DNA from: an uncultured Gammaproteobacteria bacterium
GTDB taxonomy: Bacteria > Patescibacteriota > Microgenomatia > UBA8517
Assembly (NCBI GenBank): GCA_964494885.1
Contig: CAZBTH010000005.1
Location: 29,277-89,167 of the forward strand
Direction: 5' to 3'
Length of the DNA stretch: 59,891 bases
Under the pieces are notes generated by a model that searched no databases, was not told the origin of the DNA, and saw only the letters and a list, made by a program, of their open reading frames with translations. This document shows positions 1 through 59,891 of this stretch, in pieces (the first letter of the stretch is position 1; every line of letters begins with the position of its first letter). Made by a program: the position numbers and the translations under genes.

Positions 1-1092
1 AATTGATGTATGAGCCGGTACAGATATCAAAAACATTGCCTGAGCGAAAAGTAAAATAATAAAGGGGTTGATTGCCTGTAAATAATTAGTGCCATATAAG
101 AAGGGTATTATAAATCTTGCCAAGGGTATACCTATTGCTATCCCCAAAACTGCCAAAAAAAATGTAAAAACCTGAACTTTTTTTAAATATTCTTTTGCTT
201 TTAAGTCGGAGTCAAATCCTGCAAGCTTCGGTGCCACAACAGTACCAATTGCAAAAACAATCTGAGGGACAATACCGGATAGTTGCAGCGCCGCTGAATA
301 TATACCTATGTCATAAAGTGACAACAGTCTTGTTGACAATAGAGTGTCAATTTTCCCCCCAAAGGCCGCAACTAGTGTAAACGTTGCAACCCATATGTTG
401 TATCGAAAAAATTCTCCTGCGACGTCCTTCTCGCCTTTTACATCAAAAAATCTTGGCAAAAACATGAGGCCTACCAAAAAACCAAAAAAGGGAACCAAAA
501 TATATGTCCCCAGGGAAGTGTTTGTATCGAGAAAACCAAAATACACCAAAATCAGGGTTATCAACAAACGGAGAAGGTTCGTTCCTATGTTTACTCCATT
601 CCAAATCCAATATTTCTGCAATGACTGAAGCGCGTAAGTTGAAAATGAAAATACCAAATAGCTCCCCACACCAAGTAAGGCCAAGCGCATAGGGAAAACC
701 AACTCAGGCTTAAAAAAGAATCCTGTTACAATACTCGGCACTAAAAACCATCCAAAAGATAAGACGGCCAGCCACATAACCACCCTTGTTTCAAGCGAAA
801 GTTTGAGAAACTTTAAAGCCTTATTTTTATCGATATTTATATACTTACTTACAAATCTGACAGTACCAGTATCACTCCCAACGTTGGCAACATCTGCGAT
901 AAGTGTTAAAACAGCGACCGAAACCGAAAATATTCCAAAGGCGGAGGGACCTAGGCGCCTTGCCAGAATAAAATAAAACGCGAGGCCCAAAAGTCCATTA
1001 ACTATGGTTCCAAAGGAGGTAATAATTGTCTGGGAAAAAGTTTTTGTGGATAGAATTTCCTTAACTCTGTTTAAATTTACGGTAAATCGCAT
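1..1092 (-). CDS. Wzx-like oligosaccharide/polysaccharide flippase (MOP superfamily); the C-terminal end runs off the left window edge
   Basis: Not in the supplied ORF track because it is open to the window edge. My reverse-complement translation from ATG (1092..1090) reads MRFTVNLNRVKEILSTKTFSQTIITSFGTIVNGLLGLAFYFILARRLGPSAFGIFSVSVAVLTLIADVANVG... It stays open for 364 codons to base 1 and is multi-TM throughout. The motif ARRLGPSAFG resembles GRILGPVDYG in the second flippase (37934..39208). The start overlaps the upstream gene by 32 nt. Confidence 0.8.
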   Translation of the reverse strand, partial: MRFTVNLNRVKEILSTKTFSQTIITSFGTIVNGLLGLAFYFILARRLGPSAFGIFSVSVAVLTLIADVANVGSDTGTVRFVSKYINIDKNKALKFLKLSLETRVVMWLAVLSFGWFLVPSIVTGFFFKPELVFPMRLALLGVGSYLVFSFSTYALQSLQKYWIWNGVNIGTNLLRLLITLILVYFGFLDTNTSLGTYILVPFFGFLVGLMFLPRFFDVKGEKDVAGEFFRYNIWVATFTLVAAFGGKIDTLLSTRLLSLYDIGIYSAALQLSGIVPQIVFAIGTVVAPKLAGFDSDLKAKEYLKKVQVFTFFLAVLGIAIGIPLARFIIPFLYGTNYLQAINPFIILLFAQAMFLISVPAHTSI

Positions 1093-3592
1093 ATGCCAAG
1101 TATGACACAAGAAGCGTCAAAATTGAACCCAAACTGACTTTATTGCCCAATTTTAAATATTTCTCGCCAGCAAATTTAACCGTGATCCGGTCGCTGTCTC
1201 CCAGATAATATCCGTTTATCATAGAAAAAACTGGTAAATGCAGATTGGGAGTATCGGACTCCCATCCGCGGTCAAAATTCTGAGTATAAATCAACCAGCG
1301 GTCCCCGCCGCTGGTCATATATTCTTTTGATAAACCACCTTTTTCTTTAACCGAAACAGTATGCCAATCAAATAGGGACGAATCCAAATTGCCTACGATT
1401 CCAAAATTGGATATATACGCACTCGCCTGCTTAACGGAACTGTTAAATTCTTCCTCGGAAATAACTGCAATAGTATTTAAAACTTCCAAGTTCGTATTGT
1501 TTTCAATCTCATATTCAAACTTGCCGGATTTTAATATTTTTTGTTCGAAGTTCCATGTCAGTTTTTGCTGTTTCAAAGTACCGGATCTTTTGGCAATTAT
1601 ATATTTTCCGTCTTTCGGAATTTCAAAAACATAGTTAATTTTTTCTCCTTTTTTTGTAGAAAACGCCATCCCACATCCAAAATCAAAATCTCTAAACTTA
1701 AAATCTCGAATTAGAAGTTCATATTTATACTTAAGGTATTGATTAGAACTGTAAATCGCCCACTCTGATTTTGAAGTATCTCCTACAAACTTAAAATATC
1801 GTTGCAAAAAACTCATAGCAAGGTCTGTGGAATTACCTCCGTTCAATACTATTTTTAAAGAGTCCGGTCTAACTTTTTCAAAGATGTTGGGATCAAACTT
1901 ACCGCTCTCGGCATATATGGCAGTTGGAACTTTATTGGTAGGAATAATATCAGACCCGACAACAAGTGCCAGTTTCTTAACGGAATAAACTTCGGGTCTG
2001 GGATCTTCAATCTTAAAAATCGGAATCTCTGTTCCCCAATCTTCTTTTGTAAGTCCCGTGGTCTGGGAAACCAATTTGTTTATTTCCCACCAATTAGCGA
2101 TATCTTTCTCAGTTGGATAAATATTGCGAGGATTGCCGGATAATATAATATATTTCACACCAAACACTCTTAACCAATTTACAAAACCGGTGTTGTTCAA
2201 AAAATTGTAAGGGTCTTCACCCTCGTTAATGGAAGCAAACGGTCTATATGACACAAGTTGGTTGGCGCTAAGGGCTGGTTTAGCTGAAGTTTCGAAAGCA
2301 ACCTGTGGTTTTTCGTTAAACCATAACGTTTTGAAACTACCACTCCCCTGATTTAAATGGTTGTATATTGTCAGATAATCCTCGCTTTCCCGTCTCGCCG
2401 ACAAATTAAAGTTCATTTTTCCGATAACCGCTGGGGAAATTAGTAAAATAAGGTATAGATAAACCGCAACAAATACGAACCGCTTTAAGTGAATATTTCT
2501 AAATAAATTAGAGGCCAGCTCAACCGTATTCCCAATTAAAATTCCCCCCAAAAGGACTATGGGGATAATAAACTTGCTTGAATCCCTGAAAATAGAACCG
2601 AATGGAACCCTATTTACAAAGAATTCATACCAACTTCCCAACGGGGGGGCGCTTCCTTTGGAGACAAAGGCAAAAAATAAAAACATCAGGGAAAAAATAT
2701 AATATTTTTTATCCACCTTCCTAAACATTAATCCGCCGAACGCCAAAGCAGGAACAAAGGAAAAGTAAAAAAACGGCTGAACGACTTTACCAAAAATGTT
2801 AGACGGCCAGTGAGGCGCAAATAAAAACAAAGAATTAAGGAGAGACGAAAGTTGGAGTTCTGTAACTGAAGTACTAAGCCCCCCCACTCCACCTTTTATT
2901 ATCGGCAAGAGCCAGGAAGCATTCACGGGAATTAAAAGCATTCCGGCCAATATCAACCAGAACAAATTTACAATCCGGCCTTCTAAAATCTGCCATAAGA
3001 ATATTACCAGAAAAGATAAAATCGCTATGCGGGGGTCAAGATAACAGAGGGCGGCAGTCGCAAAAAGAGCACGGGCAAATTTATGGATAGAACAACTATC
3101 AAGAAACCTTTTCCAAAAAAGAACCGTGAATGGAAAAACACCATAACTAAGAGCTATTCCCACCTGTCCGCCATCTATCAATAAAATAAAATAAGTATTC
3201 AAAAGATAAAAGAGTGAAGAAAAGAATTGCACAGTTTTTGACAACTTTAGATATTTGGTCAAAAAATAAGGACCAAACCCGGCAAGTATTACAGACGGAA
3301 AATAAAAAAGAATTCTGACAATTGCGTCGTTTCCCAATCCAAGATATTTATTAAGGGCTCCATAAATCACCATCATTGGAGAAAGCCAAAGAGCGAGATT
3401 TCTTCCGCCAAAATCCGTACCATTTTGAGACCAAATGGAAAGCCCCGAAACAAGTTCCTCCAATCCTTCGGGGTAAAAATACGGAGCATCTCCCCAAGCC
3501 AAATGTAAATTTTTAAAGAAGGATATATAAACAAATAAAGAGGGAGTCAAAATCAGAAAAACATATAACAAAATTTTGAAATATCTATTCAT
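1061..3592 (-). CDS. Large polytopic membrane protein with an extracytoplasmic C-terminal domain and a terminal TM anchor (GT-C / YfhO / AftD-type architecture); function unknown
   Basis: ORF 1061..3631. The more likely ATG is at 3592 (MNRYFKILLYVFLIL...). The N-terminal ~400 aa are a run of hydrophobic helices, followed by a ~400-aa non-hydrophobic domain and a last helix LGSILTLLVSYLAYAIY with a basic tail. Confidence 0.85.
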   Translation of the reverse strand: MNRYFKILLYVFLILTPSLFVYISFFKNLHLAWGDAPYFYPEGLEELVSGLSIWSQNGTDFGGRNLALWLSPMMVIYGALNKYLGLGNDAIVRILFYFPSVILAGFGPYFLTKYLKLSKTVQFFSSLFYLLNTYFILLIDGGQVGIALSYGVFPFTVLFWKRFLDSCSIHKFARALFATAALCYLDPRIAILSFLVIFLWQILEGRIVNLFWLILAGMLLIPVNASWLLPIIKGGVGGLSTSVTELQLSSLLNSLFLFAPHWPSNIFGKVVQPFFYFSFVPALAFGGLMFRKVDKKYYIFSLMFLFFAFVSKGSAPPLGSWYEFFVNRVPFGSIFRDSSKFIIPIVLLGGILIGNTVELASNLFRNIHLKRFVFVAVYLYLILLISPAVIGKMNFNLSARRESEDYLTIYNHLNQGSGSFKTLWFNEKPQVAFETSAKPALSANQLVSYRPFASINEGEDPYNFLNNTGFVNWLRVFGVKYIILSGNPRNIYPTEKDIANWWEINKLVSQTTGLTKEDWGTEIPIFKIEDPRPEVYSVKKLALVVGSDIIPTNKVPTAIYAESGKFDPNIFEKVRPDSLKIVLNGGNSTDLAMSFLQRYFKFVGDTSKSEWAIYSSNQYLKYKYELLIRDFKFRDFDFGCGMAFSTKKGEKINYVFEIPKDGKYIIAKRSGTLKQQKLTWNFEQKILKSGKFEYEIENNTNLEVLNTIAVISEEEFNSSVKQASAYISNFGIVGNLDSSLFDWHTVSVKEKGGLSKEYMTSGGDRWLIYTQNFDRGWESDTPNLHLPVFSMINGYYLGDSDRITVKFAGEKYLKLGNKVSLGSILTLLVSYLAYAIYRKFKQS

Positions 3593-3752
3593 AAAAAGAA
3601 TATTTAAAGACAGTTCCAAAACACAGAACAAAGAATAAATAATTCGAGACTTTGATTGCCAATCCGGCGTGACCTAAAAACAAAATGGCTCCTATTCCAA
3701 CAAGACCTAAAAAGCATAATCCCAAAATTCCCATTGCAATAATTTTCATCAT
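3585..3752 (-). CDS. Small hydrophobic protein (about 2 TM), hypothetical
   Basis: ORF 3585..3779. An internal ATG at 3752 gives MMKIIAMGILGLCFLGLVGIGAILFLGHAGLAIKV... It fills the gap between two co-oriented genes and has no recognisable family. Confidence 0.35.
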   Translation of the reverse strand: MMKIIAMGILGLCFLGLVGIGAILFLGHAGLAIKVSNYLFFVLCFGTVFKYSFYE

Positions 3753-3762
3753 CCTAATTATA

Positions 3763-4131
3763 CTAAACCGAAGAAACAAATTTAATTACAATCAAAACCA
3801 TGAAACCGTAAATATAATTACCAATCAGTTCCGACAATGTCAATAAACCCAATAAGTCAAAAAGGCCGGAGATTATAAATAAACCAAAACAAAAATATAA
3901 AATAGTTTTCCATCCAACTCTGAATATCAGAAACAAACTGGCCAAAACCAAAAAGGCGACCAATTCCTTTATAAATATTAGGTTGAAATATGGTAGCCAC
4001 GAAAATGTTGACCATATAAATACTACAAACACAAAGAAAAAGACACGTAGTCTGTTATTATTCACCCATACAAAAAAACGTCCCAGATAAACGTCCATCA
4101 AATTATTCAGATAACGGCTATTAATTTTCAT
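3763..4131 (-). CDS. Small integral membrane protein (about 4 TM), hypothetical
   Basis: ORF 3763..4155. The ATG at 4131 forms an ATGA overlap with the stop of the upstream 1169-aa gene (4128). Hydrophobic segments include VFFFVFVVFIWSTFSWL, LVAFLVLASLFLIF and ILYFCFGLFIISGLF. Confidence 0.6.
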   Translation of the reverse strand: MKINSRYLNNLMDVYLGRFFVWVNNNRLRVFFFVFVVFIWSTFSWLPYFNLIFIKELVAFLVLASLFLIFRVGWKTILYFCFGLFIISGLFDLLGLLTLSELIGNYIYGFMVLIVIKFVSSV

Positions 4132-7100
4132 ATTTTTTTCTTTTTCTCCTTCCAAGATGTCAGATACACCAAGATCAATATTATGGCTACCGACATTGAA
4201 ATCTTCGAACCTTTTTCAAATGATTCTTGCGGCCTATACACTAAAGACAAATTATACGATTTCCCACTTGGTAGTAACCATCCGTTTTCATATCCATTAA
4301 CTACGAAGTGGCGTAAATCTGTCGACCCACCCACATCCGTAAGTTCCCACTGACCATTAAACGATTGATTAAATATTAAAATTGTATCTTTATCCAATTT
4401 ATCTACCGCTATGTTATATCTGGTAGGATCAATCTTTTTATAGTTAACACTCGTTGCTCCATGGTCAACAGTGTTATCTTTAATCGCATAAATTTCCGGG
4501 CTAAAAATCTCAAGAATGTTTATTTTAACGTTTTGGGGAATTGAACCGTCATATCTGCAAAGATATACCAAAGGTTCGTCTGCGCCCACAGAAGGCGCAA
4601 AAAAATATTTGAACGGAGTACCGTCAGGATTTAACGAAACGTCTACCTCAATATCTCCTCTCAAAAATTCATCGGTTGACAGACGGCGTTGACTGTTCTC
4701 TTTGATGTACAACCTCATGTTCGGCAAATAAACATCGGATGACAAAGTCAAAACATAATTCCTATATTTATTAAAATTGTCGATCTTACCAACTAAACAC
4801 CCGCGTGTTCCTGTAGGAAAATCAACCTGTCCTTTATTCGTAATCTGAAAAAGATCGGGTAAATTTGGAAATCTTAAACTAAGTTTGCCTGTTTTCGAAA
4901 GTTCGGCAGGTCCCGCAAATATCCATCGACCATCTTGTAATCCATTAAAACTTAAGTGTTGGTCGGTATTTAACGTCATATCTGACGGAAAGACAACTCC
5001 TCCCTTATGATCGCTTGGCAACGTTGCCTTATCAAGAAGAAAATCGTATTGTCCGCCATTTGGGAGATCCACGTTGTAGACTTTATCTAGATGCCAATCA
5101 CCTCCGTCACCAACCAAACTACTAAATTGCCTCTTTAATAGGAGGCTTTGCCAAAGAATTTTGAACATATAGTCTTTTGTTTCCGATTTTTCATAACTAA
5201 AATTCGAATTATTTACATAATCCCTAAAATATCTCTGAACCGGATTGGCGGTTTCATAAACTTTGGAAACGAAATAAAAATTTGATTTCAAGGCGGTTGA
5301 CTCGGAAAGTATATTATTTATATTTTCCATGTAGATATTAATGTCATCTAATCCTCGGTTTATATACTTTTTATCAATCCTTAAATCGATCATGGACCTA
5401 ACTTCACTTAACTTTGTCATTGTCAGACCCAGGTAAGCGGCCAGTTTTGAATTTTCGTCTGTAGTGTTTAACAAAAGTTTTTCGTTTCTTTTTTCCTTAA
5501 TCACATAAAACGGAGAATTGGGTAAGACCCTGACGGGTGGGTAGTCTGCATATTTCCCCAAATTCTCGACCAAACAAGATTCGCAACTTAATGGGAAAAA
5601 CTCCTGAGAGATAAGATTCTTAAACCCTCCGTCGTTAGAATTTTTTTGGCCCACCCAGTCTCCGTTAATGTATTTTGGAGTTGTAAGCTCTTTTGACAGA
5701 TATGTGTGATCTTCGGGAATTGAAAAAAGGGAACCAGCCAATCTAAATGTGTCATCCGAATCAACTTCAACTATTTTATAGAGCGACCACGAACCAATAG
5801 TTTTGGCAAGCCTCAGGTCTCCGTTATCGGCAAAGCTTTTTGTGGCTCTCAAGTATTCTTCTTTTGTGTTATTATCCTGGGCCAAATAGTCCTCTCTTAA
5901 AAAAATATAATTTATTCCAAGTTTCCTTGAAAAATCAAAAAAAACTGGACTTCTTTGCAAGAAAAGTGTGTAAAGTCTGTTTATCTTGTCCGATTCAACC
6001 GGATTGTTTGCAACATCGTTGGCTACAAATGAACCGTTAATAAACATTACGGATGGAAGAGGAGAAAGACTCCAATATCCCCAAGTATAGTTATCGTTCC
6101 CAAACCCCCCATCAAATGCAGGTACAATCAATGCCTTTCCATTAAAATTCGTAAATTTTAACCATTGGTTAAACTCGACTACATACCCCGGAACTCTAAC
6201 CAATGTACTTTTATCCGGTTGCCATCTAAATAAATAGTTGCCATTTAACATAATAAAGTTATACGACATCCAGCCTCCGATAATAACCAAAACAAAAACA
6301 GGGACTATTGCCAATGACACCATTTTCAATCGATGGGGAAGCCAACCCACCATCTTTGAATATAGAAATTCCCCCAGCTTCGATAATGAGTATGAAAGAA
6401 ACACTGAAAAAGCGATTATAAAAGAGCCGGCAAATTTAAAATATGGAGATCTGAATATTGAAAACCCCGGAACTCTTTCATACAAAAAGGTATAAATAAA
6501 ACCCAATGGCGAGTTGGTTCCTGAAGTGAAAAACATCGATACAAGAAACAGAATTGCAAAAAAGGAAATTAAATATTTCTCAATTTTTTCTTTCGCAAAC
6601 AACATTCCGGAAAATGATAGTATTGGAAGAACGAAACTAATTAAAACCAATATTCTATTTGTTAAATAAATAGTTGCGTACGAGATTTCGGGATTAGGAA
6701 GCCCCCCGGTTAAATACCAATCAGGAACCCCCTGAAATCTAAACAGGTTAATAAAAAATGTACCTCTGCTTATATAAATCAGCCATTCTTTTCCGGCAGA
6801 AATAGTCCCAGATCCAACAACCTTGGCATAATCTGAACTAATCAATGTGGAAATAAAAGGCAATATTGAATATAAGTTAAGTAACACAAAAAAGATGATA
6901 TTTAAAACACTGAAGATTAAAGCTCTCTTTAAATATGAAAAATCTTTCTCTTTGCGCGCAACCACGAAGGCAAATAAAAGGTAAACCACGCTAGTTACAA
7001 ACAAACCCCCATAAAGAGGCAGCCCTAACCAGCTACCTCCATTGAAAACAGAAAAAACGAAGGAAAATATAATCGAACTCTTTAGGACTGATTTCGCTTT

Positions 7101-7613: not shown

Positions 7614-7620
7614 ACATAGG

Positions 7621-8286: not shown

Positions 8287-8293
8287 TTTTGAA

Positions 8294-8322
8294 TTGACTC
8301 ATAAGACCTATGGGTGCATAAT
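8294..8322 (+). promoter_or_regulatory. Sigma-70-like promoter: TTGACT-17-CATAAT, 6 nt upstream of GTG 8329
   Basis: TTGACT at 8294..8299, a 17-nt spacer, CATAAT at 8317..8322, then atcacc and GTG. Confidence 0.45.
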
Positions 8323-9369: not shown

Positions 9370-9376
9370 AAACCGT

Positions 9377-10690: not shown

Positions 10691-10696
10691 TCCGAT

Positions 10697-15610: not shown

Positions 15611-15612
15611 TG

Positions 15613-51316: not shown

Positions 51317-51322
51317 ATAACC

Positions 51323-51330
51323 ATTATAAT
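51323..51330. promoter_or_regulatory. Palindromic ATTATAAT that can serve as a -10 box in both directions in a 20-bp divergent intergenic region
   Basis: Read directly: CAT-ataacc-ATTATAAT-ttagca-ATG. On the plus strand, TATAAT (51325..51330) lies 6 nt before ATG 51337. On the minus strand, TATAAT (51328..51323) lies 6 nt before ATG 51316. Confidence 0.45.
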
Positions 51331-51336
51331 TTAGCA

Positions 51337-53241
51337 ATGGAGAAAATACTAATGGGAAGCATAGTGGGTTTTGTTGCTTTCACTTCGATCTCCTATATTT
51401 TGATAGTTTTAAATGTCCCCTTTTTAATCATTCCATTTACCGTTCTCGGAGTAGTTTTTGCATACAGGCCGTTAGTCGGAACGGTTAGACAGATCAAATT
51501 CAGGTGGAACGCGCAAACTTGGCTGATTTTGGCTGTTTTTGTCATTGGAATTTTAGGACAACTTGCAGTAATTTCCCCAAGCGGTGTTTTCCAAAACGGC
51601 AATTTGGTTTTTTGGTCGGCTCACGGTCACGACGGTGTGTGGCATATAGCTCTTATGGAAGAATTCAAAAAAGGATACCCCTTTCAAGACCCGTCATTTG
51701 CGGGTGAGAAACTTGTTAACTACCACTTTTTCTCCGACATTGCCCCTGCTATGGTTTCCAAGTATCTACCAATTTCGGATCTTGATTTATATTTCAGGAT
51801 ATTTCCGTTAATTTATTCAATATTCCTTGGTGCTTCCGCTTTTTATCTGACCAGAAAGATCACAAATAGTTTTAGCGCTTCTCTTTGGGCTACTGTTTTT
51901 ACATATTTTGCAGGAAGTTTCGGGTTCATTGTCACCTACTTAAAAAATAAAACAATCGGCGGAGAAAGTATTTTTTGGGCGACACAACCTCAAAGTTCAA
52001 GCGGAAATCCGCCTCAAATTGTTTCCAATTTCCTCCTTTTAACTTCCCTCTATTTTTTAATCACATATTTGCAAAAAAAGAAAAGTAAATTGATGTTTGC
52101 AATTTGTGTACTTCTAATAGGAACCGTTTCCGCTTTCAAAATATATGCAGGTGTAGTCCTCCTGGGTGCCCTAGGAATAGCCGGTCTTTGGCAATTAATC
52201 AGAGATCATAATTTCGGATTACTTTTGATAACTTTTTTCAGTGGGATATTGGCGGCACTTTTGTATTTCCCCAATTCCTCCGGCTCGACCTCTTTTTTGA
52301 TATTCCAACCTTGGTGGTATATAAGAACAATGGTGGTAGAACCGTCACGATTAAATCTAATCGACTGGGAACTTAGACGTCAAACATATATTTCGGTCGG
52401 TAGAATTACTTCTTATTTAAGAGTAATTCAACTTGAAGGAACGGCATTTTTGATATTCTTTTTTGGTAATCTTGGTATGCGTTTCCTCGGGCTTTGGGAC
52501 ATGGTCAAAATGTCAAAAAATTCTTTAAAAAATTATTTCAATTTAATGTTTGTACTTATTATCGTTATTTCTTTAATACTACCGTTACTATTCTTGCAAA
52601 AAGGCGTTGCCAGCAATACCAGCCAATTTTTGCAATACTTTGTATTACTTTTTGGAATATTGGCAGGAATAACAACTGCGAAAATACTGTCAAAGGTGAA
52701 GACACCGATACGCATTATAGTTACTGCCTTAATGATACTGATGACAATTCCTACTCAAGCCGGACTCTTGTATGAATTTTACGGACCCCTAAATCACCCC
52801 AGATCCCCCTTCGCTCAAATTACTAAGGAGGAGCTGATTGCTCTAAAATTTATAAAGGAAAACACTGCCGATAGCGATGTCATAATAACCCCTCCATACA
52901 ACCAATACCTTAACTTGGGGGGGTCTACACCAAATATTTGGGACTGGTTCGACACATCATATATTGCTGCTCTATCAGCACGAAGAACTTATATGGACGA
53001 TTACGAACAAGCAGACATCATGGGGTATGATTACAAACCGAGACTGGAGATAAAAAAGATAATATTTGAAAGTGATAATAGCACCGAAGTTAAAGCTGCT
53101 TTAGCCAAAACAAATGCTAATCTAATTTATTTCCCTATAGCAGAAAAGCCAAAAGTTAATCTGAATGAAATCGGTCTATCTATGGTTTTTGAAAACCAAA
53201 GCGTGCAGATTTGGGATACAAAAATACACAAAAATTATTAA
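51337..53241 (+). CDS. Polytopic membrane protein, 'DGVWH' family, paralog of 56710..58356; putative GT-C-like
   Basis: AHGHDGVWHIALMEEFKKGYPFQDPSFAGEKLVNYHFFSDI aligns with LARDGVWHEALVGQLLGGVPPQNPGFAGQVLTNYHYFFDI in the paralog. About 14 TM, then a ~150-aa C-terminal soluble domain ending FENQSVQIWDTK. Confidence 0.85.
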   Translation: MEKILMGSIVGFVAFTSISYILIVLNVPFLIIPFTVLGVVFAYRPLVGTVRQIKFRWNAQTWLILAVFVIGILGQLAVISPSGVFQNGNLVFWSAHGHDGVWHIALMEEFKKGYPFQDPSFAGEKLVNYHFFSDIAPAMVSKYLPISDLDLYFRIFPLIYSIFLGASAFYLTRKITNSFSASLWATVFTYFAGSFGFIVTYLKNKTIGGESIFWATQPQSSSGNPPQIVSNFLLLTSLYFLITYLQKKKSKLMFAICVLLIGTVSAFKIYAGVVLLGALGIAGLWQLIRDHNFGLLLITFFSGILAALLYFPNSSGSTSFLIFQPWWYIRTMVVEPSRLNLIDWELRRQTYISVGRITSYLRVIQLEGTAFLIFFFGNLGMRFLGLWDMVKMSKNSLKNYFNLMFVLIIVISLILPLLFLQKGVASNTSQFLQYFVLLFGILAGITTAKILSKVKTPIRIIVTALMILMTIPTQAGLLYEFYGPLNHPRSPFAQITKEELIALKFIKENTADSDVIITPPYNQYLNLGGSTPNIWDWFDTSYIAALSARRTYMDDYEQADIMGYDYKPRLEIKKIIFESDNSTEVKAALAKTNANLIYFPIAEKPKVNLNEIGLSMVFENQSVQIWDTKIHKNY

Positions 53242-54930
53242 CCACAAGACAATAAACGTCAACGTGACGGCATTAAACAAACGCTCTATTTTAGACTGAA
53301 CGACATTCCAACTAATTTCATTATTGCCTTCAATAAAATCATTTATCGCAAAGCAGACCCTTCCTTCACAATCGGAGTAGACTTGGGTTTTTCCATTTAG
53401 AGTGAAGGCAAAAACACCGGGAAAATAGTCCAAATTTAATATTATTTTTTTATCTAAAATATCTTTTTTTTCAATCGTTAGCATTAAGGATCCGTATGTA
53501 CTCCCCCTTCTTATCTCTATATTTTGAACTATCAGGCCTGTGTCGGTTGATGCCACCGGTGTTTTGGGCGAACACTGTGCCAGTTTACCTGCGGGGAGCA
53601 CATTATCCTGAAACTGTGTTATGGAATTATGGCTGTAATTTAGTGTGCTCAAGTTTTCATAATAAATAAGAGTTTTTTGATATACTGGCTGAGGCAAAAG
53701 ATAATTCCGGTTTGCAATTATAGCCAGAGGTGGAATTACCAATATAATTAAATAGTAGATCGGTCTGTATTTTATTCTTGAAACCACGAACGCAAAAAGC
53801 GAGCTTAAAACGAATATTATTATTCCCAATATTCTCCAGGGAAACTGTATCGCCTGTAAAATGGTTATTTTTTCCCATATGAATCCGGACGACGACAGAT
53901 CAATAAATATAAACAACAACGACAATGTGGAGAACACGATAATCCATATGTTATCTAAAATAAATTTTCGGTTAAGTCTAAATTTTGAAAGATATATCCG
54001 ACACGCTAAATATACTAATGCCACGACCAGAACTATCCACTGTGCAAGTCCTATCTGAAACGACATGCCGTCTAATTTTGTCCCAATTGCCGAATCGCCA
54101 TATCCCCACGGCGAATACAGAAGTTGAGATAAAATAGGAAAGTGATCTTTATATGAAAATACAGGTATACCGATCTGTGTAAATTTCTCTTCAAGTAATG
54201 CAGGAAAAATAAAAAAGGCTCCAAAACCGATAATACTTAAATACGAAAATATCAGTAAAATAATTTCTTTTTTCTCTTTAACTTGTTTTAACAAAACTTT
54301 AGTCACTAAATATGCGGTTATTACAGATAGGCCCAACAGAAAAACAACGTTGTGGGCAATACTCAGTAAGCCACCCGAGACGGAAGCCAGAAATAAATAC
54401 AATATATATCGATTTTGTTTGCTACCAATGGCTAATGAATAAAAATAAAAAACAGCAGGAAGAATCGCATAAGCCAGATATTCAGGACTCCCCCTGACAT
54501 AAATCAGTGAAAATTTATAGGGTGCATACAAATATAAAAGTGATCCCACAAACGACACCAACCAATCTTTTGTTTCATTTTTTAACCACAAAAAGAAAAA
54601 CAGGCTCCCCATAAATAACGACAATAAACTAATTATTTTTATAGAATTCATAATATTTCCTGTTACAAACGTTAGACTTGCCGAAATATAGTAAAAAAGA
54701 GGATTAAAAAAATTATATATCGGTGTTCCGCACTCAAAATTTAATATTCCTGCCCACCTTAAAGGAAATTGACCCTCTTTTAACGTTCGAGTTGCATCCA
54801 GAGTTCTCACTAGATGGTGATCCAGATCGTGGGTTTGGTATATCGAATATTTAAACAGGCCCCTTCCCGCCCAAGCTGTCAAAACCGTAAGACCGATCAC
54901 AACTAAAAATATTCTTTTGAAGCTATTCAT
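53176..54930 (-). CDS. Polytopic membrane protein with a C-terminal beta-rich domain and a terminal TM anchor (YfhO-like architecture)
   Basis: The first loop is YQTHDLDHHLVRTLDATRTLKEGQFPLRWAGILNFECGTPIYNFFNPLFYY, followed by about 12 TM. The C-terminal segment LNLDYFPGVFAFTLNG... is followed by the helix AVTLTFIVLWLIIFVYF. The 3' end overlaps the convergent gene by 66 nt. Confidence 0.85.
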   Translation of the reverse strand: MNSFKRIFLVVIGLTVLTAWAGRGLFKYSIYQTHDLDHHLVRTLDATRTLKEGQFPLRWAGILNFECGTPIYNFFNPLFYYISASLTFVTGNIMNSIKIISLLSLFMGSLFFFLWLKNETKDWLVSFVGSLLYLYAPYKFSLIYVRGSPEYLAYAILPAVFYFYSLAIGSKQNRYILYLFLASVSGGLLSIAHNVVFLLGLSVITAYLVTKVLLKQVKEKKEIILLIFSYLSIIGFGAFFIFPALLEEKFTQIGIPVFSYKDHFPILSQLLYSPWGYGDSAIGTKLDGMSFQIGLAQWIVLVVALVYLACRIYLSKFRLNRKFILDNIWIIVFSTLSLLFIFIDLSSSGFIWEKITILQAIQFPWRILGIIIFVLSSLFAFVVSRIKYRPIYYLIILVIPPLAIIANRNYLLPQPVYQKTLIYYENLSTLNYSHNSITQFQDNVLPAGKLAQCSPKTPVASTDTGLIVQNIEIRRGSTYGSLMLTIEKKDILDKKIILNLDYFPGVFAFTLNGKTQVYSDCEGRVCFAINDFIEGNNEISWNVVQSKIERLFNAVTLTFIVLWLIIFVYFCIPNLHALVFKNHR

Positions 54931-55532
54931 CGATTACTTAGAAGTCGCAAAAACAAATTGCCATAAATTTCCTTTATGACCTCCATTTTATTTACAGGTT
55001 TAAAATAAAGAACAATCGGAAGTCCGCCTTTGTGTATTTTTTTGTCATAGGTATACTCTACAATCCAACCTGGCATACTCTGACCAGGCCGGTCATTTTC
55101 GATGTAGAAAATTTCGATCGTTTCCCCTGGCCCGGCATCGGGGGAAGCCAAAGTAAAAACATAGGTTTTGTTTTTTGAATCCGGAAGGGGATCAAAAACA
55201 AACTTTATAAAATTTCCGTCTTCAACATTCTGACCATTTATTACCGATGTTCTGATTTTATTCATGCTTTCATCGAAAAGTGTAAAAATTATATCCTTTT
55301 TATTTTTTAAGTTGGGATTCCTTATCGACGTGCCGATCGCCGAAAGATTTGCTTTTTCTGATGTAAATTTTTGCGAAATGTCGCGGATATCGTAAACACC
55401 CAACCGCTGATCGGAAATATATCCTGGCTGAACACCGTGTGGAATCAATTTAATTCCAAGTGCGAGTACCGCAGGGAACAAAAATACCAAGAACAGGATT
55501 GCCAAAGTTGTAAACCAAATTAGTTTTTTCAT
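54927..55532 (-). CDS. Single-pass (N-terminal anchor) extracytoplasmic protein, hypothetical
   Basis: MKKLIWFTTLAILFLVFLFPAVLAL is followed by a ~170-aa beta-rich domain. ATGA overlaps on both sides. Confidence 0.75.
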   Translation of the reverse strand: MKKLIWFTTLAILFLVFLFPAVLALGIKLIPHGVQPGYISDQRLGVYDIRDISQKFTSEKANLSAIGTSIRNPNLKNKKDIIFTLFDESMNKIRTSVINGQNVEDGNFIKFVFDPLPDSKNKTYVFTLASPDAGPGETIEIFYIENDRPGQSMPGWIVEYTYDKKIHKGGLPIVLYFKPVNKMEVIKEIYGNLFLRLLSNR

Positions 55533-56713
55533 ATAATTTTATGCTCCACATCCTCCTTAAAAATCTTGTATATCATCACCAAATTACCTGCAGCCAAAAT
55601 AGAATGGAAAACTGCCTGAATATTAACCGGGTCATAGACTTTTTGTATAAAAGTGAAGGGCGTAGGAAGCATGTCATACCAAACACTGTAAACCCTAAAT
55701 AACGAAATTGTCATATACCTGTCTCGGAAAAGAGCCGGTATCGCAAAAGCTATTATGCCAAAAAGAAATAACAACCAAGAATATTCAGGTTTCTTTACAG
55801 ACAGTATTACTAAAAATGGCGCTAACCAAAGGAGCCACTGGATATGGAATAATGCAAAAGAAAAAATAATCAAAAACACAGAAACCCAATAGTTAAACAG
55901 GTTGATCTTTTTATCAAAAAGAGCCGCATAGAAGAACAGGAGCGAAAGAGCCAGTGTTGCAAAGTCAGATGTAAATACACCCGTGGTAAGCCCCGAAACT
56001 AATGCCGATTGAAAAAACGCGTTAGAAATAAAGGGCGAGATTACTATTCCGAAAGTAATTAACGGAGTAACGGAAAGAATAATCTTCTCTTTCAGGTTCC
56101 TTCCCGCCAGAAATAAAAACGGAATAAAAAGTAGTGGGTATAATTTAAAACCGGAGGCTAGTCCCAAAATAAGCGAAGCAGAAAACAACTTCTCTTTTTT
56201 GATCATTAAAAACGACAAGATCGTTAAAACTACAGAAAAGATATCTACATTAGAAAAAACATAAACAATAATTATTGTAAACGGGTTGAATAGCCAAAAA
56301 ACGAAAGCCTTCTTTTTGTCCTCTTTATCTTCAAAAAACTTCATCAATAGAAACGCAATCAGAATATCCAAAACCAAATACGGAAACTTAAGTGCGACCA
56401 GATATTTAAATATATTTGGATTTTCAACCGCAGAATACGAACCAGCATCGGCAAGCCAGGAATTAAAACCTTCGCCTAAAATTCCGGAGACTGCCCATTG
56501 ATACCCACCTAATGTGAAATAAGTTAGCGGAAAATACACAAAATCATCTTTTAACGTGAGGGATTTCTTGTTTTCAACAAGATAGGTATAAATATTAAAC
56601 ACCCCCGCTTTTAAAAATGATGCTTGAAAGTTGATAGTCTTAATATCCGGGTGGAATAAAAACCCTGCTACCAAAAGCCTCAAAATAATTGCCAAAACCA
56701 AAAGTCTTTTCAT
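55529..56713 (-). CDS. Polytopic membrane protein, GT87/DUF2029-like putative glycosyltransferase; paralog of 58353..59618
   Basis: LKFPYLVLDILIAFLLMKFFEDKEDKKKAFVFWLFNPFTIIIVY aligns with LKLPYLIFDLGVAALLFKFFKDPKNKFLAFSLWMFNPVNLYATY in the paralog. About 10 TM. Confidence 0.8.
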   Translation of the reverse strand: MKRLLVLAIILRLLVAGFLFHPDIKTINFQASFLKAGVFNIYTYLVENKKSLTLKDDFVYFPLTYFTLGGYQWAVSGILGEGFNSWLADAGSYSAVENPNIFKYLVALKFPYLVLDILIAFLLMKFFEDKEDKKKAFVFWLFNPFTIIIVYVFSNVDIFSVVLTILSFLMIKKEKLFSASLILGLASGFKLYPLLFIPFLFLAGRNLKEKIILSVTPLITFGIVISPFISNAFFQSALVSGLTTGVFTSDFATLALSLLFFYAALFDKKINLFNYWVSVFLIIFSFALFHIQWLLWLAPFLVILSVKKPEYSWLLFLFGIIAFAIPALFRDRYMTISLFRVYSVWYDMLPTPFTFIQKVYDPVNIQAVFHSILAAGNLVMIYKIFKEDVEHKII

Positions 56714-58356
56714 TGTACTTTATATATATTAACAGTATCGTTCTCAAAAATCTTAATCATTGGATATTCTTCCTCGGCCATTGGCAATGGATAGATCTTG
56801 GGTAAATAAATATAGCGTATATTGTTATCTTTCAAAAACAGGCTTGACCAGTTTAAATCTTTTTCGACGAAAAATCTGTCGGCATTTTTTATCCTTGCCT
56901 CATAATCGGTATTAAGGATTATCTGTTGCTCAACATCTTCGATGTAAACACTTTTTCCGGAATGGGCGGACACATATGAGTTATCTGCGTAAACGCTTAA
57001 TGGAAAAGGGTCTTTAAATTTGCCACGCAGATCTCTATCGAACGGATGCTTTAAGACGGTACCATCTGCCTGAGTAGAAAGATATTTTAAAGCGGTGTAT
57101 TCCATACCGGACAGATAAGCCGGGGGGTTGGGATAAAACCAACTACGGAACGTGGCGACCGAGCTAATGGGTGTAATCAGAACAATCGCAACTGTAAAAA
57201 ATACCGGAAACTTTTTTATTGAATTTGCTGCATACAGTCCGGCGAAATATAAAAAATAATAAAAGAACTGTATCACGTTCCACGCATTACCCTTTTGAAC
57301 AAAAAGAAGTGTCGGAACAATCGAAACGATCATCAAGAAAAAAATAAAGATGTGCAAATCTTCCTTAAAAAAATTCTTCCTCAGACCCCAAAGTCCAATA
57401 ATTCTTGTCCCCAAATTCCCGACAAAAAATATTGACAAACTTATAACTTCAATTACTCCGTAGTGAAACCATTTGTGACCTCCCAAATACGCAAATCTCC
57501 TGGCTGTAAAATTTGGAATACCAACCCTATCCCCAGCATCAATCATCGTATCAATTAACCAAAGCGGCTGGAACCCGACAAGGCCGGCAGCCCACCTACT
57601 AATTGACAGATAGATCATGGCAAATATCCCTGCTGAAAAAATTAACACCGGCAAAAGACTGAAATTTTTGTCGAAAAATATTTTCTTTAACGTCAAAACA
57701 AATAATGCACTGAGACATATTGCGCCTGCATACGCTTTAAAACCGACAAGAACCCCGAACGCAATTGATAAAATCAAACCTTTTAAAAAGTCCGGTTTTT
57801 TAAGATACAAATCTAAAAGGATTACTGAAAAAATTATTATGACCAACGATATTGCATAGGGGGGATTTAAGTTCATTGAAACCGGCTGGTTAGCCCAAAA
57901 CGCCGATTCTCCGGCAAAAGGTTGATGTTTGATAAGACCCACAACCCAGCCAAAACTACTTGCAAAATAGGCAAAAAATACCGCCCAAAGACTGGTTTTT
58001 TTATCTTTGAAAAGAATGTTGGCTAATTTGTACGTTCCGACTCCGAGAAGAATGGAAAACATAATCGGAAAGAAACGATAAATTAAAAACTGAGGCGAGA
58101 AAAAAGTGAATTGCGATATCTTGGCCACCAAAATATCGAAAAAATAATGGTAATTAGTTAATACCTGCCCAGCAAAACCAGGGTTTTGAGGGGGAACACC
58201 TCCAAGCAACTGCCCAACAAGTGCTTCGTGCCATACACCATCCCTAGCAAGCGGGCCAAAATATCCTACGCCGTAATCATAAAGCCATCCGCTTCGAAAC
58301 ATGGCAACGCCTTGAAAAATTGTGCCCAAGATGGTTAATACCGTTAAGATAATCAT
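56710..58356 (-). CDS. Polytopic membrane protein, 'DGVWH' family, paralog of 51337..53241; putative GT-C-like
   Basis: See 51337..53241. The C-terminus is NIRYIYLPKIYPLPMAEEEYPMIKIFENDTVNIYKVQ. Confidence 0.85.
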   Translation of the reverse strand: MIILTVLTILGTIFQGVAMFRSGWLYDYGVGYFGPLARDGVWHEALVGQLLGGVPPQNPGFAGQVLTNYHYFFDILVAKISQFTFFSPQFLIYRFFPIMFSILLGVGTYKLANILFKDKKTSLWAVFFAYFASSFGWVVGLIKHQPFAGESAFWANQPVSMNLNPPYAISLVIIIFSVILLDLYLKKPDFLKGLILSIAFGVLVGFKAYAGAICLSALFVLTLKKIFFDKNFSLLPVLIFSAGIFAMIYLSISRWAAGLVGFQPLWLIDTMIDAGDRVGIPNFTARRFAYLGGHKWFHYGVIEVISLSIFFVGNLGTRIIGLWGLRKNFFKEDLHIFIFFLMIVSIVPTLLFVQKGNAWNVIQFFYYFLYFAGLYAANSIKKFPVFFTVAIVLITPISSVATFRSWFYPNPPAYLSGMEYTALKYLSTQADGTVLKHPFDRDLRGKFKDPFPLSVYADNSYVSAHSGKSVYIEDVEQQIILNTDYEARIKNADRFFVEKDLNWSSLFLKDNNIRYIYLPKIYPLPMAEEEYPMIKIFENDTVNIYKVQ

Positions 58357-59618
58357 TTTCTTTCAACCCATTTGGGGAAATAATAATAAATAAAATAGGC
58401 AGCTACGGAGACAAACACGGTTTGTAAGATACTTCTTGTGAAGTTTATATCTACATTCATTCGCAAACTTTCCCAAATTCCCGATTGTCCGTATAAACCG
58501 GGGGAAATTGGAGAGAAGAGCCAAACGGACAAACCCGGATCAAAAAAAGACACCTGCCCAAGCCAAACGACAAACAATGTAACGGTTAGCGGCCAGTGGG
58601 AAAAACGCGACTTAATTAAATCAATAACTAAAAACGGCGTTAACCATAAAAACCACTGAGGATGGGTATGAGTAAAAATAAAGAAAAGCAAAATTACCAT
58701 GAAAAATCTCCGCCAGAGACTGCCTGACACGCCCTTGACGAAAAAGAAAACAATGTATGTAAAAAGTATAAATAGAGGAAAAAACATAATGGCTTCTCCG
58801 CCAGATATGGGAAGAGTTGCATATAGACTTTTTGTTGTCTGACCGGCAAGAAGCGCAGTAGCTCTAAATCCGTCTGAATTTATGAAAGGTAGAATGGTTG
58901 CAAGATAAGTTAGTGCTCCGATTCCAAGGATTTTAACTCTATCCCACCACTTACCCTTCATCAGTGCGAGTGGTACAAGAAATAAAAACGGGAATATCTT
59001 AAAAGAAGCGCCCAAACCCAGAAAGAAAGCCGGCCAAAAAAGATTTTCCTGCCTGCCGGCAGGCAGGTCTTTTTTAACAGCCGTATAAAGTGCCAGAATG
59101 CTCAAAAATGTGGGAATTACATCAAACTGCCCCATCATGTATGTTGCGTATAAATTAACCGGATTAAACATCCATAAGCTAAATGCCAAAAATTTGTTTT
59201 TGGGATCTTTGAAAAATTTGAAAAGTAGAGCCGCCACTCCCAGGTCAAAAATCAGATATGGAAGCTTGAGAACCAGTAGCAAAAAATTAAGCTGAATATT
59301 GCCCAAAAGTGAAGGCAATTTAAAAATAAAATCATGAAGAAGTTCTCTGTTAAACGGGAGCGAGATTACATAACTGACTGGACCCAGAAAGAAATAAACT
59401 AATGGCGGATAATTAAAGAGGTTGGTCGGATAGATTTTTAAAATCGGGTCAGAAAGTGGTAAGTTTCCTAAATAATCGTAAAAATTTAAGACATTTCCTT
59501 TGGCAATCACCTCACCGGCAAAGTAGAACGGTTGGACATCCGAATGGAATGTCGAAAATGCCAAGAACAACCGGATTAAAACTCCTATCGTTAGAACCAT
59601 GAGGATTTTTTTTGTCAT
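58353..59618 (-). CDS. Polytopic membrane protein, GT87/DUF2029-like putative glycosyltransferase; paralog of 55529..56713
   Basis: FHSDVQPFYFAGEVIAKGNVLNFYDYL...FNYPPLVYFFLG, with about 10 TM. Paralog alignment as above. Confidence 0.8.
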   Translation of the reverse strand: MTKKILMVLTIGVLIRLFLAFSTFHSDVQPFYFAGEVIAKGNVLNFYDYLGNLPLSDPILKIYPTNLFNYPPLVYFFLGPVSYVISLPFNRELLHDFIFKLPSLLGNIQLNFLLLVLKLPYLIFDLGVAALLFKFFKDPKNKFLAFSLWMFNPVNLYATYMMGQFDVIPTFLSILALYTAVKKDLPAGRQENLFWPAFFLGLGASFKIFPFLFLVPLALMKGKWWDRVKILGIGALTYLATILPFINSDGFRATALLAGQTTKSLYATLPISGGEAIMFFPLFILFTYIVFFFVKGVSGSLWRRFFMVILLFFIFTHTHPQWFLWLTPFLVIDLIKSRFSHWPLTVTLFVVWLGQVSFFDPGLSVWLFSPISPGLYGQSGIWESLRMNVDINFTRSILQTVFVSVAAYFIYYYFPKWVERK

Positions 59619-59891
59619 TTGTTTTTTCTAACAAGCATTGTAACAATACCCAGAATACTCAACAAGGAAATTATATCTAATATTCCCCTAAACTTTGTTT
59701 CCCGAAATGCTACTTCGACCTGATGTTCCCCCGCGGGAACCTTAAACTCAACCTGACCATACGGTTTGCCGGCGTAGACTTCTACCTGTTTCCCGTCAAC
59801 TGAAACCACCCATCCAGGGAAATAGTATTTGTAATAATCATAAACAGTTTCTTTTGTATAGCTTACATTGAATGTAGTATTCATTCCGGAG
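59615..59891 (-). CDS. C-terminal fragment of a larger membrane protein (YfhO-like C-terminus); the N-terminus lies beyond the right window edge
   Basis: The frame is open to the window edge. YYKYYFPGWVVSVDGKQVEV...EHQVEVAFRE, then a TM ILDIISLLSILGIVTML with a basic tail. This has the same layout as the C-terminus of 53176..54930 (DYFPGVFAFTLNG... plus TM). Confidence 0.75.
   Translation of the reverse strand, partial: SGMNTTFNVSYTKETVYDYYKYYFPGWVVSVDGKQVEVYAGKPYGQVEFKVPAGEHQVEVAFRETKFRGILDIISLLSILGIVTMLVRKNK

Follow-up and report, generated by a model that had tools for sequence, protein, structure and literature searches.

Gene content of the locus

The DNA analyzed in this study, referred to as the window, is a 59,891-bp stretch of contig CAZBTH010000005.1 (assembly GCA_964494885.1, positions 29,277 to 89,167) from an uncultured bacterium titled as a member of Gammaproteobacteria and placed by GTDB in Patescibacteriota (Microgenomatia, UBA8517). 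It was found to carry a cluster of genes for GT-C glycosyltransferases, polytopic membrane proteins, next to genes for lipid-carrier sugar synthases, flippases and sugar-nucleotide enzymes, and it is probably part of a conserved locus for assembly of an envelope glycan.

Approximately 52 genes fill the window (Table 1; genes are designated below by the first number of their coordinates). They are tightly packed and mostly on the minus strand, with stops and starts often overlapping. The GC content was 33-40% across the whole window, indicating uniform composition, and scans for tRNA genes, Rfam families and (by Pfam) integrase or transposase genes detected none in the 59,891 bp. The Pfam scan covered all open reading frames (ORFs) of at least 150 amino acids (aa) and the ORFs in three intergenic gaps of approximately 500 bp; genes running off the window ends are left out of the ORF listing and were recovered separately. 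Nearly all window genes to which a function was assignable by Pfam belong to glycan biosynthesis.

Sixteen complete polytopic ORFs were present (numbered 1 to 16 in Table 1), one of which encodes a Wzx flippase (37934), while the other 15 had evidence of being GT-C proteins. A first-pass annotation, made by a model from the sequence, had estimated about 52 coding sequences, which was borne out ORF by ORF, and 16 GT-C-like proteins. The latter number stands as 15 complete proteins plus one edge fragment (59615), not as 16 complete ones, since the sixteenth complete polytopic protein is the Wzx. Its counts of six GT2, six GT4 and five methyltransferase genes were correct by Pfam; the two Wzx-type flippases were also found, one complete and one (1-1092) cut by the window start, and its estimate of about ten sugar-nucleotide enzymes compares with nine counted here. 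Bacterial genomes usually have a handful of GT-C genes among thousands of genes; 15 among approximately 52 are far more than chance gives.

GT-C glycosyltransferases

All 15 complete non-flippase polytopic proteins belong to the GT-C superfamily as judged by hidden Markov model (HMM) matches, transitive homology or predicted fold; the first-pass annotation had allowed that most might lie outside this fold. Nine of them scored above Pfam gathering thresholds, three were assigned via paralogues or homologues, and three via predicted fold (two models plus one paralogue). Matches above threshold were to PMT_2 or PMT for 28412, 43830, 45401, 46755, 48439 and 49898, to Mannosyl_trans2 (PIG-V) for 40023, to PTPS_related for 53176 and to GT87 for 55529. 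Altogether, seven proteins were GT39/PMT_2-like, two AftD-like, two GT87, one PIG-V-like, one PTPS_related and two oligosaccharyltransferase (OST)-like, representing at least six GT-C families in the window, plus the fragment at the right edge. Relaxed-threshold Pfam and NCBIfam searches with 1061, 12021, 51337, 56710 and 58353 gave nothing useful, and PDB profile searches with the 56710-, 1061- and 12021-family alignments gave no significant match.

Hydropathy scans showed multiple transmembrane (TM) segments in all 15 proteins, and multi-helix membrane modules were seen in the AlphaFold2 (AF2) models of 56710 and 4128. An Asp or Glu just after the first TM segment is a hallmark of GT-C catalysis. 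An acidic motif in loop 1 was legible in all 15 sequences; those listed in the first-pass annotation, NWDE in 43830, 46755 and 28412, YWDE in 45401, QQDEW in 12021, GDEL in 49898 and LDEQ in 48439, are indeed present just after the first TM segment. In all four families examined, the acidic residue was invariant or nearly so: D39 was invariant in the 56710 family and D49 in the 4128 family, D48 was at least 90% conserved in the 1061 family, and in the 12021 family E34 was invariant and D33 at least 90% conserved. Judging from the short N-termini and the general topology of GT-C enzymes, loop 1 would face outward.

The five proteins encoded in tandem from 43830 to 51337 have a DE motif in loop 1, and four of them are mutual paralogues with 25-31% identity. 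The first loop of 28412 is long (approximately 130 aa). The GT39 assignment of 12021 came only via homologues, including an 87% orthologue named "glycosyltransferase family 39 protein" by NCBI and many proteins carrying PF13231. A GT39/PMT_2 assignment does not imply a protein acceptor, since ArnT-like enzymes that modify lipids fall under PMT_2 too, and Pfam detected no MIR domain in the PMT-like proteins. For 58353, the orthologue in a related complete chromosome, CP066686.1 (see below), matched GT87 and Mannosyl_trans weakly. The edge fragment 59615 showed approximately 97% aa identity (tblastx) and 87% nucleotide identity to a 534-aa PTPS_related/PMT_2 gene of the same chromosome, and weakly matched the YfhO C-terminus.

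The ORF 40023-41303 was considered as a second complete Wzx and rejected as such, its Mannosyl_trans2 match identifying it as PIG-V-like. The true start of this gene is probably near 41168, as called on an identical contig, giving a protein of 381 aa. The starts of 37174-38094 and 13551-14420 are likewise probably further downstream; taken from their first start, these three ORFs overlap their neighbors by 95-160 nucleotides.

The two AftD-like proteins carry large ectodomains. In 1061, a membrane module is followed by an ectodomain of approximately 420 aa and a C-terminal TM anchor; in 4128, an alpha/beta domain, a helical DUF5667 insert and beta-sandwich domains lie between the membrane module and the C-terminal TM anchor. 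Alignment of the two families with hhalign showed homology along their entire length (probability 99.8%, E 2e-30). Against Pfam GT-C_AftD, 4128 itself scored 17.4 bits, below the cut-off of 26, and 10 of the 28 sampled members of its family (2,310 representatives at E 1e-3 or better) matched this model, at up to E 1.7e-9. The family profile matched the AftD chains 6w98/6wbx in PDB at E 1e-6, over only approximately 60 residues. Foldseek with the AF2 model of 4128 (predicted local distance difference test [pLDDT] 84) retrieved AftD as the best match (E 2.3e-18), with 6w98, 6wby and 6wbx at E 2e-18 to 5e-17, and the AftD-type architecture of GT-C module, large beta-sandwich ectodomain and C-terminal TM helix was present in the model. 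The 1061 protein also weakly matched the MmpA model.

DUF5667 occurs twice in the window, as the insert in the 4128 ectodomain (residues approximately 704-779) and as a separate secreted protein of 166 aa (26971). Ten of the 28 sampled members of the 4128 family possess it.

A GT-C family with an OST-like fold

The paralogous proteins 56710 and 51337 had no match in Pfam or NCBIfam even at E 10, none of 143 homologues of 56710 carried a precomputed Pfam domain, and profile searches with the family found no OST in PDB. The AF2 model of 56710 (pLDDT 82, predicted TM-score 0.84) was clearly GT-C. In Foldseek, its top 12 matches were the catalytic subunits AglB, STT3 and PglB (E 2e-9 to 1e-7, TM-score approximately 0.5), followed by DPY19, AftA and ArnT; the matches to AglB included one to the globular domain at the C-terminus of AglB-S2 (3vu0, probability 0.98). 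The WWD-type (WWDYG) motif was found in none of 30 family members. The two proteins thus form a GT-C family without a Pfam model whose predicted fold resembles that of oligosaccharyltransferases. That the family is a true oligosaccharyltransferase was considered and is unsupported by motif and HMM; the fold alone matches.

The genes 51337 (plus strand) and 53176 (minus strand) are convergent, with 3' ends overlapping by 66 nucleotides. The same overlap is kept in CP066686.1, between the genes at local positions 13573-15327 and 15262-17166.

Donor synthases, flippases and cytoplasmic enzymes

Two of the six GT2 proteins, 18373 and 27471, are membrane-anchored. In 18373, DSDLQ was found at residue 97 and two C-terminal TM helices at 233-301 after the GT2 domain; in 27471, DADLQ was at residue 96 and the C-terminal helices were at 234-298. 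The NCBIfam alignments of both were full-length, with scores below the equivalog cut-offs. Full-length matches to PgfS, ArnC and AglJ, together with the DxDLQ motif and the two C-terminal helices, identify both as synthases of the GtrB/ArnC/DPM1 type, in agreement with their first-pass reading as lipid-carrier-sugar synthases; because the equivalog cut-offs were not reached, no sugar is assignable to either. Their presence in the locus is circumstantial evidence that the GT-C enzymes may use polyprenyl-phosphate donors.

The other four GT2 proteins (17460, 26117, 37174 and 42943) are soluble. Together with six GT4 (10702, 14477, 21102, 31723, 33713 and 41161), five methyltransferases (7621, 13551, 20405, 30546 and 32958), nine sugar-nucleotide enzymes (8314, 9377, 15613, 19484, 22177, 23049, 24143, 39205 and 42219) and the flippases, they represent a cytoplasmic arm. 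The truncated Wzx at the left edge was 84% identical in aa sequence to a 429-aa Wzx of CP066686.1. The word "largely" in the first-pass description of a "largely extracytoplasmic" machine does not hold: the locus is a hybrid, as the cytoplasmic arm is equally large (12 GT-A/GT-B transferases, two Wzx and a full sugar-nucleotide toolkit).

Table 1. Genes and ORFs of the window. Polytopic ORFs are numbered in order of position; scores in bits are followed by the Pfam cut-off in parentheses.
Coordinates	Strand	Polytopic ORF	Feature	Evidence or remark
1-1092	-		Wzx flippase, N-terminal 364 aa	Pfam Polysacc_synt PF01943 E 1.5e-16; cut by window start
1061-3631	-	1	GT-C, AftD/PTPS_related-like, 856 aa	homologues (38-58% identity) carry PF10131
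3585-3779	-		small hydrophobic membrane ORF, 64 aa	between the two AftD-like genes
3763-4155	-		small hydrophobic membrane ORF, 130 aa	between the two AftD-like genes
4128-7637	-	2	AftD-like GT-C, 1169 aa	AF2 model, Foldseek AftD
7621-8286	-		class I methyltransferase	Pfam
8314-9369	+		nucleoside diphosphate (NDP)-sugar epimerase/dehydratase	Pfam
9377-10690	-		NDP-sugar dehydrogenase	Pfam; NCBIfam subfamily 303 bits, above cut-off
10702-11946	+		GT4	Pfam
12021-13646	-	3	GT39/PMT_2-like GT-C, 541 aa, loop-1 QQDEW	homologues carry PF13231
13551-14420	+		FkbM methyltransferase	Pfam
14477-15610	-		GT4	Pfam
15613-17460	-		AsnB-type glutamine amidotransferase	Pfam
17460-18278	-		GT2	Pfam
18373-19479	+		polyprenyl-phosphate-sugar synthase, GtrB/PgfS/ArnC type	NCBIfam PgfS E 1.6e-69, ArnC E 3.6e-34
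19484-20428	+		GDP-fucose-synthase-like	NCBIfam Fcl E 2e-86, below equivalog cut-off
20405-21094	-		FkbM methyltransferase	Pfam
21102-22199	-		GT4	Pfam
22177-23064	-		epimerase/reductase	Pfam
23049-24053	-		PseB/FnlA-like UDP-GlcNAc 4,6-dehydratase	NCBIfam PseB E 7e-106, below equivalog cut-off
24143-25264	-		LegC/PseC-like aminotransferase	NCBIfam LegC-family E 9e-101, below equivalog cut-off
25353-26045	-		soluble protein, 230 aa	no Pfam or PDB match
26117-26917	-		GT2	Pfam
26971-27471	+		secreted DUF5667 protein, 166 aa	Pfam; adjoins donor synthase
27471-28415	+		polyprenyl-phosphate-sugar synthase, ArnC/PgfS/AglJ type	NCBIfam ArnC E 3e-51, PgfS E 3e-40, AglJ E 1e-23
28412-30565	-	4	PMT_2/PMT GT-C, 717 aa, NWDE	Pfam PMT_2 32.1 bits (26.1), PMT 25.6 (22.7)
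30546-31202	-		methyltransferase	Pfam
31314-31715	+		soluble protein, 133 aa	no Pfam or PDB match
31723-32961	+		GT4	Pfam
32958-33716	+		methyltransferase	Pfam
33713-34840	-		GT4	Pfam
34894-35268	-		23S-rRNA-IVP-family four-helix-bundle protein, 124 aa	PF05635 E 6e-38
35293-37173	-		secreted protein, 626 aa, signal peptide	no Pfam above threshold (weak DUF3863)
37174-38094	-		GT2	Pfam
37934-39208	-	5	Wzx/MOP flippase, complete	Polysacc_synt_3 E 9e-17
39205-40035	-		NDP-sugar epimerase	Pfam
40023-41303	-	6	PIG-V-like GT-C	Pfam Mannosyl_trans2 E 3e-13, 50.4 bits (22.4)
41161-42222	-		GT4	Pfam
42219-42956	-		short-chain dehydrogenase	Pfam
42943-43830	-		GT2	Pfam
43830-45404	-	7	PMT_2/GT39-like GT-C, tandem	above PMT_2 gathering score
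45401-46765	-	8	PMT_2/GT39-like GT-C, tandem	above PMT_2 gathering score
46755-48425	-	9	PMT_2/GT39-like GT-C, tandem	above PMT_2 gathering score
48439-49908	-	10	PMT_2/GT39-like GT-C, tandem	above PMT_2 gathering score
49898-51337	-	11	PMT_2/GT39-like GT-C, tandem	above PMT_2 gathering score
51337-53241	+	12	OST-like GT-C, 634 aa	paralogue of 56710-58356, 32% identity, E 8e-79
53176-54930	-	13	PTPS_related GT-C	Pfam PF10131 39.5 bits (26.4)
54927-55532	-		single-TM protein, 201 aa	between PTPS_related (53176) and GT87 (55529) genes
55529-56713	-	14	GT87 (PimE-type) GT-C	Pfam GT87 28.5 bits (25)
56710-58356	-	15	OST-like GT-C, 548 aa	AF2 fold; no Pfam model for family
58353-59618	-	16	GT87-like GT-C, 421 aa	31% identity to 55529-56713, E 4e-29
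59615-59891	-		GT-C fragment, C-terminal 91 aa	cut by window end; orthologue in CP066686.1

Conservation of the locus

Proteins identical to those of the window were found on groundwater metagenome contigs, and the closest named relatives were from Candidatus Woesebacteria (Microgenomates) of the candidate phyla radiation (CPR). The window is assigned to a groundwater member of Candidatus Woesebacteria. The complete chromosome CP066686.1 (1,078,985 bp) was collinear with window positions 1-13,498 and 46,858-59,891 at 79-89% nucleotide identity, with collinearity extending from the left end to approximately 23.5 kb, and the spacing of the middle part was almost equal in the chromosome and the window (33.7 kb vs 33.4 kb). 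Methyltransferase genes differed: CP066686.1 has two extra ones (local positions 7513-9195, compared with window 13551-15610) and is without the FkbM gene 20405-21094, which hints at fine-scale variation in glycan methylation.

Glycan genes in CP066686.1 run past both window ends. Beyond the right end lie two GT-C genes (551-aa PTPS_related and 774-aa YfhO), a gene for an unassigned 561-aa protein and two GT2; the left flank holds the Wzx whose counterpart is cut by the window start, together with two PMT_2, three GT2, two GT4, an epimerase and two methyltransferases. The locus in this chromosome is at least 77.9 kb, or 7.2% of the genome, with approximately 20 GT-C genes and borders not reached, and most of its genes are annotated as encoding hypothetical proteins. 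The term "striking investment" used in the first-pass annotation is justified by a locus of at least 78 kb in a genome of 1.08 Mb. No identical locus with a characterized product was found, and no paper describing the locus or a GT-C expansion in CPR bacteria was found in the full-text literature, the coverage of which excludes most subscription journals.

One genome per species was scanned for the OST-like family; 97 relatives were found and 80 loci were kept, which carry Microgenomates-type, unspecific CPR or apparently mistaken labels. The 57 loci of at least 20 kb (Woesebacteria, Daviesbacteria and related) had a median of 8 GT-C homologues (range 1-12) per 21.6 kb around the OST-like marker, and a recurrent order was observed, namely two to four PTPS_related, GT87, OST-like, GT87, OST-like and then several PMT_2. 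The cluster was dense in Woesebacteria and Daviesbacteria and sparse in Collierbacteria, and a GtrB-like gene was located within 10 kb of the OST-like gene in 28 of the 80 loci. Since the loci were sampled for carrying the OST-like marker, the sample shows conserved context, not prevalence. Gene order, which the first-pass annotation had proposed to compare, was thus collinear in the parts of CP066686.1 compared, and the order of the GT-C core recurs in related genomes; the GT-C cluster is a conserved lineage trait rather than a strain-specific island.

This Microgenomates-type locus is also present in many third-party annotation assemblies whose titles name uncultured Gammaproteobacteria or Pseudomonadales, and in others titled as Clostridia or Spirochaetia; such titles look like placeholders or a wrong taxonomy.

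Proposed function and alternatives

We consider it likely, with a probability of about 0.7, that a conserved chromosomal locus for the assembly of an envelope glycan, to which the window belongs, works through two coupled arms; donor type, catalytic topology, step order, sugars and acceptor are what we infer from the sequences. In the cytoplasmic arm, the sugar-nucleotide enzymes (dehydratase, aminotransferase, reductases/epimerases, dehydrogenase, amidotransferase and the GDP-fucose-synthase-like protein) would make unusual sugars: a 6-deoxyhexose, a sugar of the 2-acetamido-4-amino-2,4,6-trideoxyhexose type, and either a uronic acid or the corresponding amide. The four soluble GT2 and six GT4 would assemble these into one or two polyprenyl-diphosphate-linked oligosaccharides, for the decoration of which the five methyltransferases are candidates, and the two Wzx would export them. 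In the extracytoplasmic arm, 18373 and 27471 would load single sugars onto polyprenyl phosphate and, after flipping, the 15-16 GT-C enzymes would transfer them on the outer face, each accounting for a different linkage or acceptor.

The most likely acceptor, by analogy, is a lipid- or wall-anchored polysaccharide (a lipoglycan or secondary wall polymer), possibly with surface proteins in addition. In characterized systems, enzymes of the GT87 and PIG-V-like families use glycolipids or polysaccharides as acceptors, and this, together with the AftD-like beta-sandwich ectodomains, favors such an acceptor. With Wzx but neither Wzy nor WaaL in the window, another enzyme has to pass the flipped glycan on to its acceptor; the OST-like pair, on the basis of its modeled fold and with neither WWDYG nor an STT3 sequence signal, is a speculative candidate.

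Several points weigh against this interpretation. Two donor synthases for at least 15 GT-C enzymes require heavy donor sharing or donors encoded elsewhere. No GtrA/GtcA-type flippase (PF04138) was matched in any window ORF; no priming phosphoglycosyltransferase, Wzy, WaaL or LCP ligase was found in the window ORFs by Pfam, nor was there any Pfam match to Wzy_C, Wzz, Bac_transf or MraY-type families, so that both arms are incomplete within the window. The direct synteny comparison with CP066686.1 covered the window up to approximately 23.5 kb and from 46.8 kb on. Some GT-C-like modules lack catalytic function; an example is MmpA, which resembles the membrane part of AftD and acts in trehalose-lipid transport (PMC8698533), and the window genes may belong to several independent pathways instead of one.

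A different emphasis, possible though in our view not probable, is that the locus serves mainly protein glycosylation, with the seven GT39/PMT_2-like enzymes O-glycosylating Ser/Thr of secreted, S-layer or pilin proteins, the OST-like pair transferring the Wzx-flipped oligosaccharide en bloc to protein and the other GT-C enzymes extending the protein-bound glycan. Precedents are Pmt in Actinobacteria and PgfM1/M2 in Streptococcus mutans. The question is kept open by the GT39-like expansion and the OST-fold pair: the PMT/PMT_2 matches are accompanied by a DE motif, as is typical of protein O-mannosyltransferases, one donor synthase has its closest match in PgfS, a component of a protein-glycosylation system, the best structural matches of the 56710 family are AglB, STT3 and PglB, and with Wzx but no Wzy or WaaL an en-bloc transferase is missing. 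However, the peptide-binding WWD(YG) motif and STT3 Pfam matches are absent from the OST-like family, MIR domains are lacking, no candidate acceptor protein was identified, and AftD-like enzymes, in addition to GT87 and PIG-V-like ones, act on glycolipid or polysaccharide in known systems.

The window may also hold several unrelated modules that are merely co-located, such as a Wzx-dependent heteropolysaccharide pathway and independent three-component systems decorating peptidoglycan, a teichoic-like polymer and lipids. The presence of two Wzx and of two donor synthases points to two sub-pathways or more, and both the differing methyltransferase content of CP066686.1 and the range of 1 to 12 GT-C copies among lineages are in line with this. 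What makes it doubtful is that the GT-C core order recurs in many species and that the genes overlap in operon-like runs, which suggests functional coupling at least within the GT-C block.

A more far-reaching and rather improbable version is a lineage-specific extracytoplasmic glycosylation pathway in Woesebacteria, Daviesbacteria and related Microgenomates resembling that of the endoplasmic reticulum (ER), in which the OST-fold pair would be a new class of en-bloc transferases that may move a Wzx-flipped oligosaccharide to a surface protein or polymer, a dozen further GT-C enzymes would remodel the glycan outside, and the resulting glycocalyx could mediate host attachment of these ultra-small cells.

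Many of the GT-C-fold proteins might instead not be transferases and serve as scaffolds, as transporters of lipids or glycolipids, or as receptors for lipids derived from a host. Such roles would suit a CPR bacterium, as this group is not known to make its own lipids. Six of the 15 proteins are without a direct Pfam match above threshold, and the weak MmpA match of 1061 recalls the transport role of that relative of the AftD membrane module; still, we regard this as unlikely, since the loop-1 Asp/Glu that is catalytic in characterized GT-C enzymes is kept in all four families examined and donor synthases are co-located with the GT-C genes.

That the locus is an island for a strain-variable surface antigen, gained by horizontal transfer and comparable to an O-antigen or capsule locus, as suggested by the all-glycan gene content and the small methyltransferase differences between close relatives, is very improbable and was rejected in view of the uniform GC content, the window's lack of tRNA, Rfam, mobility, Wzy, Wzz and WaaL genes, the collinearity with CP066686.1 and the wide conservation of the GT-C core in Woesebacteria and Daviesbacteria. 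The first-pass term "island" is therefore misleading.

Comparison with known systems and significance

The assembly of lipomannan, lipoarabinomannan and arabinogalactan in mycobacteria and corynebacteria (Ppm1, PimE, MptA-C, EmbA-C and AftA-D), to which the first-pass annotation had likened the locus, resembles the proposed pathway in that many GT-C enzymes extend a glycan outside from polyprenyl-phosphate sugars. The likeness holds for family content, the window having two AftD-like proteins with large ectodomains (4128 and 1061) and two GT87/PimE-like ones (55529 and 58353). It does not extend to the arabinose donor, as Pfam recognized no genes for decaprenyl-phosphate-arabinose synthesis in the window. 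Furthermore, 15-20 GT-C genes are clustered here in 60-78 kb of an approximately 1-Mb genome, whereas they are scattered over 4 Mb there; no Emb or AftA/B-type HMM match was found here, a Wzx-dependent arm is joined, and the host is a CPR bacterium, not an actinobacterium.

In the ER lumen of eukaryotes (ALG3/9/12/6/8/10, PIG-M/V/B/Z, PMT, DPY19 and STT3), GT-C enzymes fed by a DPM1-type synthase are comparable in number and diversity, and the window likewise has PIG-V-like and PMT-like proteins as well as proteins of OST fold. The setting here, however, is bacterial, no ALG-family HMM match was found and the OST-like family is without WWDYG. The 56710 model shares with PglB/AglB/STT3 (GT66) the fold, with membrane module and C-terminal alpha/beta domain, and the invariant loop-1 Asp; it differs in having neither an STT3 sequence match nor the WWD motif and in a soluble domain of only approximately 130 aa. 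Wzx/Wzy loci for O-antigen or capsule likewise have Wzx, GT2 and GT4, a sugar-nucleotide toolkit and methyltransferases, but the window contains no Wzy, Wzz, WaaL or priming transferase and its locus is conserved across a class-level lineage, not strain-variable.

The chemistry is conventional; unusual are the number and clustering of GT-C genes, the ratio of approximately two synthases to at least 15 GT-C enzymes, the Wzx arm without Wzy and a family without a Pfam model. The genomes of CPR bacteria are tiny, and the cultivated members of the group grow attached to other microbes, which gives the cell surface a central place in their biology. Approximately 20 GT-C enzymes rival the number in all of Mycobacterium tuberculosis or the eukaryotic ER, and a conserved locus that has this many and occupies approximately 7% of a genome of 1 Mb implies that the surface glycan is complex and has high selective value. 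The locus supplies gene targets for glycomics of enrichment cultures, the OST-like family adds to the known fold landscape of GT-C, and the recurrent gene order is a marker for recognizing the machinery in other Microgenomates.

Multi-component transmembrane glycosylation systems (GtrA/GtrB/GtrC, CsbB/GtcA/YfhO, PgfS/PgfM1/PgfE/PgfM2 and ArnC/ArnT; see PMC8035078 and PMC11127046 for reviews and, with PMC5836110, for the Gram-positive systems) have the same division of labor, a membrane GT2 making the polyprenyl-phosphate sugar and a GT-C enzyme transferring it outside. One synthase serves one or two GT-C enzymes there, compared with two synthases and 15-16 GT-C enzymes here, and the GtrA/GtcA flippase of these systems is the component not detected in the window.

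Small and unassigned proteins

The two small membrane ORFs between the AftD-like genes had no Pfam match; CP066686.1 has gene calls of 122 aa and 54 aa at the positions of 3763-4155 and 3585-3779, respectively. The former was considered as a GtrA-like flippase, being the only small multi-TM ORF in the window, and this had no Pfam support. The two ORFs could be candidates for a polyprenyl-phosphate-sugar flippase or for enzyme subunits.

The 124-aa protein 34894 also has a sub-threshold bAvd-like match. bAvd is the accessory protein of diversity-generating retroelements, and the window has no reverse transcriptase. The soluble proteins 25353 and 31314, encoded inside sugar-nucleotide blocks, may be unrecognized sugar-modifying enzymes. 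The 626-aa secreted protein 35293 had no PDB relative in a single-sequence search and is probably an extracytoplasmic component of the pathway.

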